Source: Escherichia coli (GTDB taxonomy: Bacteria; Pseudomonadota; Gammaproteobacteria; Enterobacterales; Enterobacteriaceae). Taken from it: a DNA stretch of 64,000 nt. The DNA is taken from the NCBI RefSeq assembly GCF_044324785.1, contig NZ_CP172127.1, one strand, 5' to 3'. A program made the translations under genes and the position numbers. The notes under the pieces were generated by a model. That model was not told the DNA's origin. It saw only the letters and a program-made list of their open reading frames with translations, and did no database searches. Positions 5,344 to 37,078 of this stretch are shown here, in pieces. Each line of letters opens with the position of its first letter. Position 1 is the stretch's first letter.

Positions 5344-8300
5344 ATGATTACTATTGACGGTAATGGCGCGGTTGCTTCGGTGGCGTTTCGCACCAGTGAA
5401 GTTATCGCCATCTACCCTATTACCCCCAGTTCCACGATGGCAGAACAGGCTGATGCATGGGCCGGAAACGGCTTGAAAAACGTCTGGGGAGACACACCAC
5501 GCGTGGTTGAAATGCAGTCGGAAGCAGGTGCTATCGCTACCGTGCATGGCGCTTTGCAGACGGGTGCCCTTTCAACATCGTTTACGTCATCGCAGGGTTT
5601 GCTGCTGATGATCCCGACGCTGTACAAACTGGCAGGCGAACTCACACCGTTTGTCCTACATGTAGCGGCACGTACCGTTGCCACACATGCACTCTCTATT
5701 TTTGGCGATCATTCCGACGTCATGGCGGTGCGCCAGACGGGTTGCGCGATGTTGTGTGCGGCAAACGTCCAGGAAGCGCAAGACTTTGCTCTCATTTCGC
5801 ACATCGCGACGCTGAAAAGCCGCGTGCCATTTATTCATTTCTTTGATGGTTTCCGCACGTCCCACGAAATCAATAAAATTGTCCCGCTGGCCGATGACAC
5901 GATTCTTGATCTCATGCCGCAGGCCGAAATTGATGCTCATCGCGCCCGGGCACTCAACCCGGAACATCCGGTGATCCGCGGTACGTCCGCCAATCCTGAC
6001 ACTTATTTCCAGTCTCGCGAAGCCACCAACCCCTGGTACAACGCGGTCTATGACCATGTTGAGCAGGCGATGAATGATTTCGCTGCCGCGACAGGTCGTC
6101 AGTATCAGCCGTTTGAGTATTACGGGCATCCGCAAGCTGAACGAGTGATTATCCTGATGGGCTCAGCCATTGGCACCTGTGAAGAAGTGGTTGATGAATT
6201 GCTAACCCGTGGCGAAAAAGTCGGCGTGCTGAAAATTCGCCTGTACCGCCCCTTCTCAGCCAAACACTTGCTACAAGCTCTGCCGGGATCCGTACGCAGC
6301 GTGGCGGTACTGGACAGAACCAAAGAACCCGGTGCCCAGGCAGAACCGCTCTATCTGGATGTGATGACCGCACTGGCAGAAGCCTTTAATAATGGCGAGC
6401 GCGAAACCCTGCCCCGTGTCATTGGTGGGCGCTATGGTCTTTCATCCAAAGAATTTGGCCCGGACTGTGTACTGGCGGTATTTGCCGAGCTCAACGCGGC
6501 TAAACCGAAAGCGCGCTTTACGGTTGGTATTTACGATGATGTGACCAATCTGTCACTGCCGTTGCCGGAAAACACCCTGCCAAACTCGGCGAAACTTGAA
6601 GCCTTGTTTTATGGCCTTGGTAGTGATGGCAGCGTTTCCGCGACCAAAAACAATATCAAGATTATCGGTAATTCCACGCCGTGGTACGCACAGGGCTATT
6701 TTGTTTACGACTCCAAAAAGGCGGGCGGCCTGACGGTTTCTCACCTTCGCGTGAGCGAGCAGCCGATTCGTTCCGCTTATCTCATTTCCCAGGCTGATTT
6801 TGTTGGCTGCCACCAGTTGCAGTTTATCGATAAATATCAGATGGTTGAACGTTTAAAACCTAGCGGCATTTTCCTGCTCAACACGCCGTACAGCGCAGAT
6901 GAAGTGTGGTCGCGCTTGCCGCAGGAAGTTCAGGCCGTGTTAAACCAGAAAAAAGCGCGCTTCTATGTGATTAACGCGGCGAAAATCGCCCGCGAATGTG
7001 GCCTGGCGGCCCGTATTAATACCGTCATGCAGATGGCTTTTTTCCATCTGACGCAAATTCTGCCTGGCGATAGCGCCCTCGCAGAATTGCAGGGTGCGAT
7101 TGCCAAAAGTTACAGTAGCAAAGGTCAGGATCTGGTGGAGCGCAACTGGCAGGCTCTGGCGCTGGCGCGTGAATCCGTAGAAGAAGTTCCGTTGCAGCCG
7201 GTTAATCCGCACAGCGCCAATCGACCGCCTGTGGTTTCCGATGCCGCTCCTGATTTCGTGAAAACCGTTACCGCGGCGATGCTCGCCGGGCTTGGTGATG
7301 CCCTCCCCGTTTCGGCGCTGCCGCCAGACGGCACCTGGCCGATGGGCACCACGCGCTGGGAAAAACGCAATATCGCCGAAGAGATCCCCATCTGGAAAGA
7401 GGAACTCTGTACCCAATGTAACCACTGCGTCGCCGCTTGCCCACACTCAGCTATTCGCGCAAAAGTGGTACCGCCTGAAGCGATGGAAAACGCCCCTGCC
7501 AGCCTGCATTCGCTGGATGTGAAATCGCGTGATATGCGCGGGCAGAAATATGTCTTGCAGGTGGCACCGGAAGATTGCACCGGCTGTAACCTGTGCGTCG
7601 AAGTTTGCCCGGCGAAAGACCGTCAGAATCCAGAGATTAAAGCCATCAATATGATGTCGCGCCTGGAACATGTCGAAGAAGAGAAAATCAATTACGATTT
7701 CTTCCTCAACCTGCCAGAAATCGACCGTAGCAAACTGGAACGTATTGATATTCGTACATCGCAGCTGATTACACCGCTGTTTGAATATTCAGGTGCTTGC
7801 TCCGGTTGTGGCGAGACGCCGTATATTAAATTGCTGACTCAGCTCTATGGCGACCGGATGTTGATCGCTAACGCCACGGGCTGTTCTTCAATTTATGGCG
7901 GTAACCTGCCCTCTACACCGTATACTACCGATGCCAACGGTCGAGGACCGGCATGGGCGAACTCGCTGTTTGAAGATAACGCCGAATTTGGCCTTGGTTT
8001 CCGCCTGACGGTCGATCAACACCGTGTCCGCGTGCTGCGTCTGCTGGATCAATTTGCCGATAAAATCCCGGCTGAATTACTAACTGCGTTGAAATCAGAC
8101 GCCACGCCAGAGGTTCGTCGTGAACAGGTTGCAGCTTTACGCCAGCAACTCAAAGATGTTGCCGAAGCACATGAACTGCTACGTGACGCAGATGCGCTGG
8201 TGGAAAAATCAATCTGGCTGATTGGCGGCGACGGCTGGGCTTACGATATCGGCTTTGGCGGTTTGGATCATGTATTGAGTTTGACAGAAAACGTCAACAT

Positions 8301-30691: not shown

Positions 30692-30746
30692 GGTGATGCT
30701 GCCAACTTACTGATTTAGTGTATGATGGTGTTTTTGAGGTGCTCCA

Positions 30747-31022
30747 GTGGCTTCTGTTTCTATCAGCTGTCCCTCCTGTTCAGCTACTGACGGGGTGGTG
30801 CGTAACGGCAAAAGCACCGCCGGACATCAGCGCTATCTCTGCTCTCACTGCCGTAAAACATGGCAACTGCAGTTCACTTACACCGCTTCTCAACCCGGTA
30901 CGCACCAGAAAATCATTGATATGGCCATGAATGGCGTTGGATGCCGGGCAACTGCCCGCATTATGGGCGTTGGCCTCAACACGATTTTACGTCACTTAAA
31001 AAACTCAGGCCGCAGTCGGTAA
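30747..31022 (+). CDS. insA: IS1 InsA, 91 aa
   Basis: [40 protein letters not shown]... matches canonical InsA. Confidence 0.95.
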
Positions 31023-31444
31023 CCTCGCGCATACAGCCGGGCAGTGACGTCATCGTCTGCGCGGAAATGGACGAACAGTGGGGCTATGTCGGGGCTAAAT
31101 CGCGCCAGCGCTGGCTGTTTTACGCGTATGACAGTCTCCGGAAGACGGTTGTTGCGCACGTATTCGGTGAACGCACTATGGCGACGCTGGGGCGTCTTAT
31201 GAGCCTGCTGTCACCCTTTGACGTGGTGATATGGATGACGGATGGCTGGCCGCTGTATGAATCCCGCCTGAAGGGAAAGCTGCACGTAATCAGCAAGCGA
31301 TATACGCAGCGAATTGAGCGGCATAACCTGAATCTGAGGCAGCACCTGGCACGGCTGGGACGGAAGTCGCTGTCGTTTTCAAAATCGGTGGAGCTGCATG
31401 ACAAAGTCATCGGGCATTATCTGAACATAAAACACTATCAATAA
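30941..31444 (+). CDS. insB: IS1 InsB frame; transposase InsAB' is made by a -1 frameshift
   Basis: The 167-aa frame overlaps insA, the standard IS1 organisation. Confidence 0.9.
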
Positions 31445-31459
31445 GTTGGAGTCATTACC

Positions 31460-32927: not shown

Positions 32928-33242
32928 TAAAATTGATGCGTAATTATTTGTTTCGCCTTAAAGAAATGCAAACAACTTCCATCAAAAAAGTGACAAAGGA
33001 AGCATCAAATGTTTTAAGTATCAATATATCAAATCAGATTTAGCGTAAATAATAGTCTCCAAAATGCGGTAAAGCACATAGAACTCCGAACACTACGTTC
33101 GGGCTTCGCACGTTCAAACCCGTTTTCGGTATCATAATCAGCATCTGTCGCCATTGTGCGAAGAATAAAAAATGACCAAAACGTTGAAAGGAACTGAGAA
33201 TACGTTAAGAGAAGAATTAAATTAATGTATCAGCAAGTAGTG

Positions 33243-34142
33243 CTAAACAGCACCTTTATACTTCAGCCTATCTATAAATAATGAGAATGCCGAGCCAGCA
33301 TGTCGACGGTGTGGATAGTACAGGTGATAACCGGGTAAATCTGGTGTGAATTTATCCAAAACACGTATCAGTTTTTTTTCTTTAATAGCCCGCTCAACCT
33401 GATCATAAGGTAGATACGCCAACCCATGCCCATCAATTGCAGCATCAATGATCAGGTCTATCGTATTCAGTAAAAGCTGACCTTCCATGCGAACACGAAC
33501 TTCACGTCCACCGCGTATTAATCTCCAGCGATTTGCTGTACCCGATGTGGGAAGATACAAATTAATTGCCTGATGATCTATTAATTGTGACACTGACGTT
33601 GGAGCACTTCGACGAGAAAAATAATCCGGTGAGCCAACAATAGCCATTGGTATATCTGGCCCGATTCGAATGGCGATCATATCTTTATCCATCTCCCCAC
33701 CCAGACGGACGCCTGCATCAAAACGTTCAGAAACGACATCGGTCAAACCATAATCAATGGTAAGCTGGATATCAATTTCAGGATGCGATTTCAGGAATGT
33801 GCGCATAGCTGGTAACAATATCGTTTTTGCTGCATGTTCTACAGTAGTAATACGTATTGTCCCGGATGGGCGGTTCTGCAGATCGCTCAGGGATGTCAGG
33901 GCAGAATCTATGTCATGCAACATAGGGCCAAGAACAGACAAAAGATGCTCGCCCGCTTCAGTGGGTACAACGCTGCGCGTGGTTCGCGTCAGAAGCCGCA
34001 ATCCTAATCGTTCTTCTATACGGCGCACTATCTGGCTTAAAGCTGACTGCGCCATGCTCAGGCGGGCTGCTGCGCGAGTGAAGCTACGCTCCTCTGCAAC
34101 GACGACAAACGCCATCAGATCAGCGATTTCTTCACGCTTCAT
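33243..34142 (-). CDS. pgrR: LysR-family regulator PgrR (YcjZ), 299 aa
   Basis: 299-aa LTTR. Position between mppA and ycjY matches K-12 ycjZ. Confidence 0.8.
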   Translation of the reverse strand: MKREEIADLMAFVVVAEERSFTRAAARLSMAQSALSQIVRRIEERLGLRLLTRTTRSVVPTEAGEHLLSVLGPMLHDIDSALTSLSDLQNRPSGTIRITTVEHAAKTILLPAMRTFLKSHPEIDIQLTIDYGLTDVVSERFDAGVRLGGEMDKDMIAIRIGPDIPMAIVGSPDYFSRRSAPTSVSQLIDHQAINLYLPTSGTANRWRLIRGGREVRVRMEGQLLLNTIDLIIDAAIDGHGLAYLPYDQVERAIKEKKLIRVLDKFTPDLPGYHLYYPHRRHAGSAFSLFIDRLKYKGAV

Positions 34143-34279
34143 TCAGTATCTCCATACAATCTATTAATCATTTAAATGATAGGTCTAATCATGATTTTGG
34201 GTCTAATCAACTTAATGATCAATATCTATAGTGATATCACCAACCGTCAAAACGAACCGACAACTCCATGAGGAACGGA

Positions 34280-35200
34280 ATGATGAATAATAAAGTCAGC
34301 TTCACTAACAGCAATAATCCAACCATCTCTTTGTCTGCAGTGATCTATTTCCCTCCAAAATTTGATGAAACCCGTCAGTATCCGGCAATTGTGGTATCTC
34401 ACCCAGGTGGGGGCGTTAAAGAGCAAACGGCCGGAACCTATGCCGAAAAACTGGCGGAAAAGGGATTTGTCACTATTGCTTATGACGCATCTTATCAAGG
34501 TGAAAGCGGCGGCGAGCCGCGTCAGTTAGAAAACCCATACATTCGTACTGAAGACGTCAGTGCCGTGATTGATTACCTGACAACGCTTTCTTATGTCGAC
34601 AATACCCGAATTGGTGCGATGGGAATTTGTGCCGGTGCAGGATATACAGCCAATGCTGCAATTCAGGATCGCCGCATCAAGGCCATCGGTACTGTTAGTG
34701 CGGTCAATATTGGTTCGATGTTCCGTAATGGTTGGGAAAACAATGTGAAATCTATTGATGCCCTACCATACGTTGACGCGGGTTCAAACGCCCGAACCAG
34801 CGATATTAGCAGCGGAGAATACGCCACTATGCCACTGGCACCAATGAAGGAGTCCGATGCGCCGAACGAAGAACTGCGTCAGGCCTGGGAGTATTACCAC
34901 ACCCCTCGCGCGCAGTATCCAACAGCACCGGGTTACGCTACTTTGCGCAGCCTTAACCAGATTATTACCTATGATGCTTACCATATGGCGGAAGTGTACC
35001 TGACTCAGCCGATACAGATTGTGGCGGGCAGCCAGGCAGGGAGCAAATGGATGAGTGACGACCTGTACGATCGAGCATCAAGCCAGGATAAACGCTATCA
35101 CATTGTTGAAGGCGCAAACCATATGGATCTTTATGACGGCAAAGCCTATGTGGCTGAAGCAATTTCAGTATTAGCTCCGTTCTTTGAGGAAACTCTGTAA
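34280..35200 (+). CDS. ycjY: YcjY, alpha/beta-hydrolase (dienelactone hydrolase / S9-like), about 306 aa
   Basis: Nucleophile elbow GICAGAGY. Divergent from pgrR. Confidence 0.8.
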   Translation: MMNNKVSFTNSNNPTISLSAVIYFPPKFDETRQYPAIVVSHPGGGVKEQTAGTYAEKLAEKGFVTIAYDASYQGESGGEPRQLENPYIRTEDVSAVIDYLTTLSYVDNTRIGAMGICAGAGYTANAAIQDRRIKAIGTVSAVNIGSMFRNGWENNVKSIDALPYVDAGSNARTSDISSGEYATMPLAPMKESDAPNEELRQAWEYYHTPRAQYPTAPGYATLRSLNQIITYDAYHMAEVYLTQPIQIVAGSQAGSKWMSDDLYDRASSQDKRYHIVEGANHMDLYDGKAYVAEAISVLAPFFEETL

Positions 35201-36132
35201 TGAAACATATTCAAATCCGCAATAGTGATATGGCCTGGCATATTGCTGCCAATATTCAGTTTCCACCAAATTTTGATGAGTCAAAACAGTATCCGGCGAT
35301 TATCAGCGTCCATCCTTTTGGCAGTTGTAAGGAGCAGACGTCTGGCAATATCTATGGCAAGGCATTGGCTGAAAAAGGCTATGTCGTTCTCGCTTATGAC
35401 GCCAGTTTCCAGGGAGAATCTGGTGGGGAGCCTCGTTGGATAGAAGATCCGACACAGCGCGTTGAGGATATTAGCCGTGTTATCGATTATGCAGTAACTC
35501 TGCCATATGTTGATGCTGAACGCATTGGCGTGCTGGGTGTGTGTGGGGGGGGTGGCTATGCCATTAATGCCGCGCTGACAGAAAAACGAATTAAAGCTGT
35601 AGTGAGTATTACGGGTGTTAATATCGGGCGTCTTTTTCGAGAAGGTTTCAGCAATTACGATCCGATTGGCGCATTGAATGCAATGGCGTCGCAACGAACC
35701 AAAGAGGCTCGTGGTGGAGAATTACAGATCAACGAATTACTTCCCGCCAGCCTGGATGCAGCAAAAGCCCATGGACTGACCGAACGCGATGTTTATGAAG
35801 CAACTGACTACTATAAAACACCACGCGGGCAACAACCGGGAGGTGCGACAAAAATGTTGTTCTCACATGCACAGAAAACGCTGGCCTGGGATGCCTTCGC
35901 ATTTACTGAAGTGTTACTGACTCAGCCGGTGATGGTAGTAGTTGGTGAAAAAGTCGGTGCCTTCGGTGCTTATCGTGATGGACTGGAAGTCTATGGCCGG
36001 GCGATGGTTTCGCAGGATCGTCAGTTAGTTTCGTTACCCGATTTCTCACATTATGAACTGTATGACAAACCGGAAGCAGTTCAGGAGGCGCTGGAAAAAG
36101 TTATTCCTTTTTTCAACACCCATCTGGGATAA
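35200..36132 (+). CDS. ymjD: Intact paralogue of YcjY (alpha/beta-hydrolase), 310 aa; a pseudogene fragment in K-12
   Basis: The 310-aa paralogue shares QYPAI..SVHP..GG.KEQT..IAYDAS.QGESGGEPR with YcjY. Its start overlaps the ycjY stop (ATGA). Confidence 0.6.
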   Translation: MKHIQIRNSDMAWHIAANIQFPPNFDESKQYPAIISVHPFGSCKEQTSGNIYGKALAEKGYVVLAYDASFQGESGGEPRWIEDPTQRVEDISRVIDYAVTLPYVDAERIGVLGVCGGGGYAINAALTEKRIKAVVSITGVNIGRLFREGFSNYDPIGALNAMASQRTKEARGGELQINELLPASLDAAKAHGLTERDVYEATDYYKTPRGQQPGGATKMLFSHAQKTLAWDAFAFTEVLLTQPVMVVVGEKVGAFGAYRDGLEVYGRAMVSQDRQLVSLPDFSHYELYDKPEAVQEALEKVIPFFNTHLG

Positions 36133-36149
36133 GTTTCATGAGAAATATT

Positions 36150-36788
36150 ATGAAAAAAGTACTCATTCTTGGTGCTGGCGGTCAGATAGCCCGCCATGTG
36201 ATTAATCAACTGGCAGATAAACAAACCATTAAACAAACTTTATTTGCTCGTCAGCCAGCAAAAATACACAAACCCTATCCAACTAATAGCCAGATTATTA
36301 TGGGGGATGTACTGAATCATGCAGCACTGAAGCAGGCCATGCAGGGACAGGATGTTGTGTATGCCAACCTTACGGGGGAAGATTTAGATATTCAGGCAAA
36401 TTCAGTGATCGCTGCGATGAAAGCCTGTGATGTTAAACGTCTGATCTTTGTTCTTTCCCTCGGTATTTATGATGAAGTTCCAGGAAAATTTGGCGAATGG
36501 AATAATGCAGTTATTGGTGAACCCCTAAAACCATTCCGCAGGGCTGCGGATGCAATTGAGGCTTCTGGACTGGAATATACAATTCTTCGCCCTGCCTGGC
36601 TGACTGATGAAGATATTATTGATTATGAGCTTACCTCACGCAATGAACCATTCAAAGGTACGATCGTATCACGTAAGAGTGTCGCCGCATTAATTACAGA
36701 TATCATCGATAAACCTGAGAAACACATTGGTGAGAATATAGGCATCAATCAACCCGGGACTGATGGCGATAAACCCTTCTTCATGTAA
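36150..36788 (+). CDS. ymjC: NAD(P)-binding NmrA/SDR-like protein, about 212 aa; a pseudogene fragment in K-12
   Basis: Rossmann motif ILGAGGQIARHV at the N-terminus. Confidence 0.6.
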   Translation: MKKVLILGAGGQIARHVINQLADKQTIKQTLFARQPAKIHKPYPTNSQIIMGDVLNHAALKQAMQGQDVVYANLTGEDLDIQANSVIAAMKACDVKRLIFVLSLGIYDEVPGKFGEWNNAVIGEPLKPFRRAADAIEASGLEYTILRPAWLTDEDIIDYELTSRNEPFKGTIVSRKSVAALITDIIDKPEKHIGENIGINQPGTDGDKPFFM

Positions 36789-36806
36789 ATCAATTATATA
36801 GCTACC

Positions 36807-36838
36807 ATCGTACTGTACTATGTGCAGTACGATTTATT
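36807..36838 (+). terminator. Putative intrinsic terminator after the ycjY-ymjD-ymjC unit
   Basis: ATCGTACTG-tactatgtg-CAGTACGAT followed by TTATT. Confidence 0.5.
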
Positions 36839-37078
36839 AAACTTATTAAGGTGAACTGATCAATCAGATGCGATTAACATGTGTAGAACCAGTAAGAATA
36901 AAATACGCCATGTATATAACATTACGACAATTCTAATATCTGCACATCAATGAAAATGCAAACAACTTCTGGCAAAAAAGTGATACAAGATCGATGACAT
37001 AGCGTTGAAGAAAAGGATTTGATAATCCGCAAAATTTGCACAACACTGCCTGTAATACTTCCTGAACCAGAGACGATC

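Follow-up and report, generated by a model that had tools for sequence, protein, structure and literature searches.

The stretch of DNA analyzed here comprises 64,000 nucleotides of the Escherichia coli contig NZ_CP172127.1 (RefSeq assembly GCF_044324785.1) and is referred to as the window. We focus on the interval between pgrR, which encodes a LysR-type regulator, and mpaA. According to the list of open reading frames (ORFs) of the window, this interval is occupied by three intact ORFs on the same (plus) strand, which correspond to ycjY, ymjD and ymjC and encode two α/β-hydrolases and an NmrA-like protein. The two hydrolases are referred to as hydrolase 1 (H1, YcjY) and hydrolase 2 (H2, the intact YmjD). 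None of the three ORFs contains a frameshift, and their lengths match those of the orthologues in Serratia and Afipia (306–314, 311–322 and 211 amino acids, respectively). The coordinates of the genes and of the other features of the locus are collected in Table 1.

H1 and H2 are 42% identical across 299 residues (E = 4e-72), which identifies them as true paralogues. They share the motifs QYPAI..HP, KEQT and AYDAS.QGESGGEPR, and both carry a cysteine at the nucleophile elbow, which reads GICAGAGY in H1 and GVCGGGGY in H2. The two genes are joined by a TAATG sequence (35198–35202), in which the stop and the start codon share one nucleotide. For ycjY, the start at 34280 is the one used in K-12 and in the Protein Data Bank entry and yields 306 amino acids, and an alternative start at 34268 yields 310. 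The ymjC gene has an alternative ATG at 36138, from which a protein of 216 amino acids is read instead of the 212 given by the Prokaryotic Genome Annotation Pipeline (PGAP). A 12-nt indel is present at this start (36138–36161): the window contains ATGAGAAATATTATGAAAAAAGTA (MRNIMKKV), while K-12 and strain 09-02E contain ATGAAAAATGTA (MKNV), and both of these short-form genomes also bear the first of the two deletions described below. The hairpin downstream of ymjC has a predicted folding energy of −16.2 kcal/mol (z = −4.65 against shuffled sequences). The initial annotation, which was made from the sequence of the window without database searches, had described an intact ycjY-ymjD-ymjC unit between pgrR and mpaA, consisting of two tandem hydrolase paralogues with the motifs above and an NmrA-like Rossmann-fold protein, and our analysis agrees with it on each of these points. 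The ATGA overlap that it assigned to the hydrolase genes has to be replaced by the 1-nt overlap of TAATG. Of its hairpin terminator, the hairpin itself is present, but the U-tract is weak, and a consensus scan for promoters and terminators, which gave counts at the level of shuffled sequences, did not call the hairpin at 36807–36833.

Table 1. Features of the pgrR-mpaA interval and its surroundings, in window coordinates.
Feature	Position	Strand	Description
Left 32-bp direct repeat	32964–32995		AAATGCAAACAACTTC...CAAAAAAGTGA; cassette boundary on the mppA side
pgrR (ycjZ)	33243–34142	−	LysR-type regulator gene, divergent from the hydrolase operon; cassette member
Putative PgrR operator region	34167–34219		ATCA-N6-TGAT dyads at 34167–34180 and 34206–34219; GTCTAATC repeats at 34183–34190 and 34201–34208
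ycjY (H1)	34280–35200	+	α/β-hydrolase, 306 amino acids; Cys117 in the elbow GICAGAG, His281
Intact ymjD (H2)	35200–36132	+	YcjY paralogue, 310 amino acids; Cys115 (GVCGGGG), His284, Cys43
Deletion 1	35255–36121	+	867 bp, equal to 289 codons, in frame; segment absent from K-12
Intact ymjC	36150–36788	+	NmrA-like/NAD_binding_10 atypical short-chain dehydrogenase/reductase, 212 amino acids (PGAP start)
Deletion 2	~36289–36953	+	~665 bp, junction placed within 1 nt; segment absent from K-12-like genomes
Hairpin	36807–36833	+	12-bp stem and 3-nt loop, followed by UUUAUU; probable intrinsic terminator closing the cassette
Right 32-bp direct repeat	36954–36985		Cassette boundary on the mpaA side
mpaA	37079–37807	+	Downstream gene; right boundary of the interval

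Relatives of H2 are found with 85–88% identity in Klebsiella and Serratia and with approximately 80% identity in Afipia, Mesorhizobium, Agrobacterium, Sphingobium and Brevundimonas. In Serratia marcescens and Afipia carboxidovorans, a divergent LysR gene, H1, H2 and an NmrA-like gene follow each other in that order. When one genome per species with H2 was selected and searched with the window proteins, 59 loci were obtained, 55 of which belong to genera other than Escherichia. H1 adjoins H2 in 39 of these 55 loci, a divergent gene for a PgrR-like LysR regulator (mostly 55–89% identity) lies directly upstream in 37, and all three genes are collinear in 34. The hydrolases of the collinear cassettes are mostly 67–93% (H1) and 61–89% (H2) identical to the window proteins, but the mutual identity of H1 and H2 is only about 40%; the two therefore represent distinct orthologue groups that are kept as a pair. 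The cassette was found in Serratia, in Klebsiella, where it is also present on plasmids, in many Alphaproteobacteria and in Pseudoalteromonas, and the TAATG overlap of the hydrolase genes is kept in Enterobacterales. The genes mpaA, ycjG and mppA were not found within the 8-kb flanks of any of the 55 loci.

A YmjC-like short-chain dehydrogenase/reductase (SDR) follows the cassette in 11 loci, including those of Serratia and Afipia, which had been found separately. Other partner genes encode classical SDRs, an old yellow enzyme-type flavin reductase, a Flavodoxin_4-like protein in Pseudoalteromonas and Alteromonas, and medium-chain dehydrogenase/reductase proteins resembling quinone oxidoreductases in Streptomyces. 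All of these partners are oxidoreductases, and an all-against-all clustering of the ORFs of 60 loci revealed no further conserved neighbor besides LysR, the two hydrolases and the assorted oxidoreductases. The position of the reductase gene also differs, as a classical SDR gene is located between H1 and H2 in Mixta, Cedecea and Pantoea (loci L052, 7195–7950; L060, 7196–7951; L053, 7018–7962), and the order is H2, reductase, H1 in Brevundimonas and in a Lysobacterales metagenome-assembled genome. In Agrobacterium, Camelimonas and Microvirga (loci L015, 8945–9268; L019, 8992–9315; L020, 9045–9356), only fragments of a YmjC-like gene remain after H2. As these three alphaproteobacterial loci show, the reductase gene has also decayed independently of the E. 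coli K-12 lineage.

On plasmids, 63 records of PLSDB contain a relative of H2, with 52–87% identity among the matches listed and with 44 of the 63 below 60%. The IncF plasmid NZ_CP103422.1 of Klebsiella variicola carries two related modules next to each other (locus L070, 952–7933), which are flanked by recombinase genes and the insertion sequence (IS) IS1. The first module consists of genes for LysR, an α/β-hydrolase, an SDR and an NADH-dependent flavin oxidoreductase, the second of LysR, H1 and H2. A 489-amino-acid fusion of H2 with an NmrA-like protein (P0002) was set aside: it was predicted only once, on one contig assembled from a sequencing run, and probably results from a frameshift or a misassembly and not from a natural fusion. 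Judged by gene order and protein similarity, pgrR, ycjY, ymjD and ymjC together are a conserved cassette that occurs in several bacterial classes and on plasmids.

The neighborhood of the cassette in Escherichia is best understood by comparison with outgroups. In Citrobacter, Enterobacter mori and Klebsiella oxytoca, mppA and mpaA are divergent neighbors approximately 185 bp apart, and ycjG, tpx and tyrR come after them as in E. coli. In the window, the cassette is bounded by two direct repeats of 32 bp, which are identical at 28 of 32 positions and correspond to a sequence that is present as a single copy in the mppA-mpaA spacers of Citrobacter, Enterobacter and Klebsiella. Outside the two copies, the window remains homologous to the outgroup spacer on either side. 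The 3.96 kb between the repeats contain exactly pgrR, ycjY, ymjD and ymjC, and the G+C content of this block is 46.2%, compared with 54% for mpaA and ycjG. A genome of a cryptic Escherichia clade (locus L061) carries the cassette at the identical site. Because mppA and mpaA are adjacent in the outgroups, the block is flanked by the 32-bp repeat and its G+C content is lower, these sequences are most simply read as the result of an insertion, by which the Escherichia lineage acquired the cassette between mppA and mpaA. A length of 32 bp is long for a transposon target duplication.

The mppA side of the window shows additional changes. An IS1 element of 768 bp (30692–31459), which is accompanied by a 9-bp target duplication (TACGCGCTT), interrupts mppA approximately 170 nt before its stop codon, and the MppA ORF is cut to 490 amino acids compared with 537 in K-12. 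A working murein-tripeptide binding protein is thus probably missing from the window genome. Between ynaI and ynaJ, the window does not contain the IS5 that is present there in K-12.

Alignment with the K-12 strain MG1655 confirmed that the three window genes are the collinear, intact counterparts of K-12 ycjY, ymjD and ymjC. The K-12 genes ymjD and ymjC lie at the same locus, use the same start codons and retain 95–98% DNA identity over the parts that are left, but they are deletion remnants of 21 and 60 amino acids, whereas the window genes encode full-length proteins of 310 and 212 amino acids. K-12 ymjD consists of H2 codons 1–18 fused in frame to the last three codons of H2, and K-12 ymjC consists of codons 1–46 of the reductase gene, after which the frame continues into the DNA 5′ of mpaA in the window. 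The first remnant reflects deletion 1. The second reflects deletion 2, which takes the 3′ 500 nt of ymjC together with the hairpin and extends to the right exactly as far as the second copy of the 32-bp repeat.

A screen of 5,426 complete E. coli genomes for matches to three segments of the locus revealed how widespread these deletions are. The ycjY region was matched in 5,242 genomes (96.6%), the interior of H2 in 1,282, and the 3′ part of ymjC plus the spacer in 2,942. The segment covered by deletion 1 is thus missing from approximately 76% of the genomes. The intact class comprises about 1,280 genomes, including O157, O26, O111 and O145 strains, about 1,660 genomes carry deletion 1 only, and about 2,300 are K-12-like and carry both. 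A sizeable class with deletion 2 alone was not found among the 5,426 genomes, and nearly all H2 carriers have a full-length ymjC. The deletion 1 junction is the same in K-12 and in one deletion-1-only strain except for two point differences downstream of it, and this agreement points to a single origin of deletion 1. Together with the lack of a sizeable deletion-2-only class, the shared junction argues for a stepwise decay, and the order of events in E. coli, as read from these genomes, is deletion 1 followed by deletion 2 on that background. We regard it as very likely that the three parts of this account, namely a conserved cassette, its insertion and its subsequent decay, are jointly correct. 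In Shigella flexneri SFBU1023 (locus L037, 6550–8000), a different lesion is present, as a 1.45-kb insertion splits H2 at the equivalent of window position 35550. In the same locus and in L064, homology to the window ends within pgrR at position 33707, which suggests that the two share a rearrangement or an IS insertion in pgrR.

The hydrolase that remains in K-12 has also changed. K-12 YcjY (6934–7854 of the K-12 locus L001) differs from the window protein by eight nonsynonymous and five synonymous codon differences, which is a small count. Among the replacements are P35Q, V39L and M147I, at sites where at least 43 of the 46 family members agree. These replacements would fit a relaxed constraint after the loss of the partner and are a weak hint that YcjY depends on it. 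The K-12 protein is the one that was crystallized (5XB6), and this structure may not necessarily be representative of the functional enzyme.

The spacer between the LysR gene and H1 contains an ATCA-N6-TGAT dyad in 27 of 30 cassettes, in Enterobacterales and Alphaproteobacteria alike. In 23 of the 30 spacers, a CTAAT element is additionally present 3′ of the dyad, nearly always exactly 36 nt downstream. In K-12, genomic SELEX (systematic evolution of ligands by exponential enrichment) revealed a PgrR binding peak in the ycjY/ycjZ spacer, and PgrR is autoregulated. We infer that the conserved dyad is the PgrR operator, which fits both of these data. PgrR would bind to it in the divergent promoter region and control the operon in response to a small-molecule signal.

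PgrR was named for peptidoglycan recycling in K-12, and secondary tables of the K-12 regulon place ycjY-ymjDC-mpaA and ycjG under its control. By removing the hairpin between the cassette and mpaA, deletion 2 would have allowed read-through into mpaA from the PgrR-controlled promoter. As the deletion also abuts the right repeat, mpaA is placed directly downstream of the PgrR promoter in K-12-like strains. That the ycjY-ymjD-ymjC-mpaA operon of K-12 is a product of deletion 2 is a tentative reading, for which we see a little less than an even chance. Part of the case for PgrR as a regulator of peptidoglycan recycling may be a by-product of the same deletion, and the published link of PgrR and ycjY to recycling in K-12 would then be at least partly secondary.

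These data bear directly on the claim of the initial annotation that the ancestral locus for peptidoglycan-peptide catabolism was larger than it appears in K-12. If so, the hydrolases and the reductase would be ancestral members of the mppA/mpaA/ycjG locus and would act on murein peptides or γ-glutamyl compounds. The adjacency of the cassette to mppA, mpaA and ycjG in Escherichia and the regulon tables are in line with this explanation, as are the filaments that form when ycjY is over-expressed in K-12 and weak Pfam matches to the peptidase families S15 and S9. However, mppA and mpaA are adjacent in the outgroups with no cassette between them, a duplicated target sequence bounds the cassette in Escherichia, and none of the 55 loci from other genera contains mpaA, ycjG or mppA within 8 kb. 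Moreover, the conserved partners are oxidoreductases and not peptidases or transporters, the nucleophile is a cysteine instead of the serine of S9 and S15 peptidases, with Pfam matches limited to the N-terminal part, and H2 is missing from about three quarters (~76%) of E. coli genomes. An ancestral murein-peptide function is therefore quite improbable, and the claim points the wrong way: the cassette intruded into the locus for peptidoglycan peptides and is now being lost from it again.

To characterize the active sites, 47 H1 and 57 H2 sequences were aligned. At least 95% conserved in both families are the elbow cysteine (C117 in H1, C115 in H2), a histidine close to the C terminus (H281/H284), the HP pair at the oxyanion position, K-E-Q, Q-G-x-S-G-G-x-P-R, five arginines and Asp232/231, the last being a candidate for the third residue of the triad. 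H2 has a second, family-specific cysteine in HPxGSCKEQ, as the residues before KEQ are GSC in H2 and GGV in H1. Signal peptides were not found in the hydrolases. Both hydrolases belong to the YcjY/PA2218 family on the basis of full-length similarity, the α/β fold, the elbow cysteine and the histidine. YcjY matches 5XB6 with an E value of 1e-201 and H2 matches it with 1e-68 over residues 12–307, and H2 also matches PA2218 (2HDW) over the full length. YmjC covers the complete profile of PF13460 (NAD_binding_10; 184.2 bits, positions 1–184 of 184), scores 43.7 bits against NmrA and contains a glycine-rich dinucleotide-binding motif (LILGAGGQIA) from residue 5. The Tyr-x3-Lys motif was not seen in its sequence, which contains only a Y-x5-K (YDEVPGK); atypical SDRs often lack Tyr-x3-Lys.

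Among the NCBIfam models, the UilS family lactonase (NF047920) is the best match for both hydrolases, with 87.3 and 77.6 bits (E = 1e-24 and 1e-21), and the alignment is full-length for H2. UilS of Serratia degrades acyl-homoserine lactones experimentally (PMC11633161), and it is conceivable on these grounds that H1 and H2 are cytoplasmic N-acyl-homoserine lactonases engaged in quorum quenching. We consider this very improbable, because scores of 78–87 bits are far below the 400-bit cut-off of the family, quorum-sensing genes are not present in the neighborhood, and the opening of a lactone ring needs neither a pair of hydrolases nor a reductase. Membership in the UilS family was accordingly rejected, and the cassette hydrolases are better described as its distant relatives than as UilS orthologues.

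The match to the Pfam family DLH (PF01738) raises a related question. With 37.2 bits for H1 and 35.7 bits for H2, both hydrolases exceed the gathering score of 21, and their G-x-C-x-G-G elbow resembles that of ClcD-type dienelactone hydrolases. Several invariant arginines suggest a carboxylate substrate, the hydrolase genes are followed by one for an NAD(P)H-dependent reductase, and operons for the catabolism of (chloro)aromatic compounds typically have a LysR regulator, so that a classical dienelactone hydrolase combined with a step like that of maleylacetate reductase could be envisaged. Yet the match is confined to the N-terminal half of the profile (positions 11–123 and 10–129 of 217), and the canonical aspartate after strand β7 is replaced by alanine (H1) or valine (H2) in the consensus, when compared with the ClcD motif (Cys-His-Asp, with G-x-x-D at the acid position). 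The cassette hydrolases are also about 70 residues longer than dienelactone hydrolases and have a large cap. Genes for catechol dioxygenases or cycloisomerases were not found in any locus examined, and maleylacetate reductases belong to the iron-type alcohol dehydrogenase family, unlike the NmrA-like YmjC. The half-profile match and the alanine or valine at the acid position led us to reject membership in the dienelactone hydrolase family, and a pathway of this kind is improbable.

A further explanation concerns the pair itself. H1 and H2 could be redundant tandem duplicates without functional coupling, such that the loss of one is neutral. Most E. coli have indeed lost H2 but keep ycjY, and the same catalytic residues are retained in both paralogues. 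However, the duplication is ancient, and both orthologue groups are highly conserved side by side across bacterial classes; in addition, residues such as GGV and GSC before KEQ are fixed in a family-specific manner, and the TAATG overlap is conserved in Enterobacterales. Redundancy is for these reasons rather unlikely. In Enterobacterales, coupling through TAATG would instead yield the two Cys-His hydrolases in a fixed proportion. We propose that H1 and H2 would cooperate, as successive enzymes or within a hetero-oligomer, in the hydrolysis of a small lactone, ester or thioester that is probably anionic. The product, or else the substrate, would then be reduced by the reductase at a carbonyl, ene or quinone group. 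This role is proposed because signal peptides are lacking and because of the Cys-His site, the conserved arginines, the pairing of the hydrolases, the LysR regulator and the interchangeable reductases. A murein-peptide, an acyl-homoserine lactonase and a classical dienelactone function are each less likely than it. As a description of physiology, a hydrolase-plus-reductase pathway for a small molecule, serving either detoxification or catabolism, is a possibility that we hold with reserve, as the odds are still against it. The more specific version, in which the two cysteine hydrolases are subunits of one small-molecule system, PgrR is its dedicated sensor and the peptidoglycan assignment is a by-product of a deletion, appears less probable still and is offered as a speculation. 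If it were true, textbooks would place PgrR and ycjY in peptidoglycan recycling because of a deletion in the K-12 lineage, which fused mpaA to the operon of the cassette.

In total, the best explanation of the locus is an intact four-gene cassette that entered the spacer between mppA and mpaA, is undergoing decay in E. coli and has a PgrR-controlled hydrolase/reductase function, and we put its probability at about 60%. Several observations weigh against it. In some loci, no H1 gene is located next to H2, the hydrolase genes are separated by 30–145 nt without overlap outside Enterobacterales, and the reductase is missing from most cassettes and is thus not obligatory. YcjY on its own persists in 96.6% of E. 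coli genomes and causes filamentation when over-expressed in K-12, so that it may have an independent activity related to the cell envelope. At the protein level, the canonical acid site is occupied by alanine or valine, and the AlphaFold2 model of H2, which is good in the core, is poor in the cap, with a predicted local distance difference test score below 50 at residues 149–218. The U-tract of the hairpin, which is a candidate terminator in intact strains, is poor. Finally, literature searches on ycjY, ymjD/ymjC, 5XB6 and PA2218 retrieved no biochemical data.

The intact trio as such is not new. PGAP annotates it as two α/β-hydrolases followed by an SDR family oxidoreductase in the approximately 1,280 genomes of the intact class, roughly one in four of E. 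coli, and the crystal structures of YcjY (5XB6) and of a protein nearly identical to the NmrA-like one (3QVO) have been solved. Given this earlier annotation and the structures of two of the three proteins, we claim no novelty for the trio, and in the form in which the initial annotation presented it, the finding carries little weight, as routine annotation and existing structures precede it. Papers on machine learning with O157 strains, on olaquindox and on PhoP in Shigella mention ycjY only as an entry in a table. The value of the intact locus lies elsewhere. K-12 is a poor model for it, since this strain lacks H2 and the reductase and since its YcjY, the variant that was crystallized, bears marks of drift. 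The simplest view of PgrR is that it regulates a mobile hydrolase cassette, and its name and its role in recycling merit re-examination in a strain with an intact locus. Furthermore, the conserved pair of cysteine hydrolases with interchangeable NAD(P)H- or flavin-dependent reductases constitutes a well-defined orphan enzyme system that is suited to substrate screening.

The closest known relatives of the two hydrolases are YcjY of K-12 (5XB6) and PA2218 of Pseudomonas aeruginosa (2HDW), both uncharacterized α/β-hydrolases. Different from the window proteins, the crystallized YcjY is that of K-12, where the partner hydrolase has been lost, and it carries replacements at positions that are invariant in the family. 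YmjC is essentially the protein of 3QVO, which is described as an NmrA family protein (E = 4.5e-138). Its wider relatives are atypical SDRs, namely the Veillonella protein 3R6D, ChuY/ShuY and the biliverdin-IXβ/flavin reductases, but the similarity to ChuY and the flavin reductases is weak (approximately 30 bits), so that their substrates cannot be transferred to YmjC. As a whole, the cassette resembles the divergent catabolic or detoxification operons that are regulated by LysR-type proteins, with which it shares the divergent regulator gene, the interrupted dyad and a second element at a fixed distance. It differs from them in that its regulator bears a name derived from peptidoglycan recycling in K-12.

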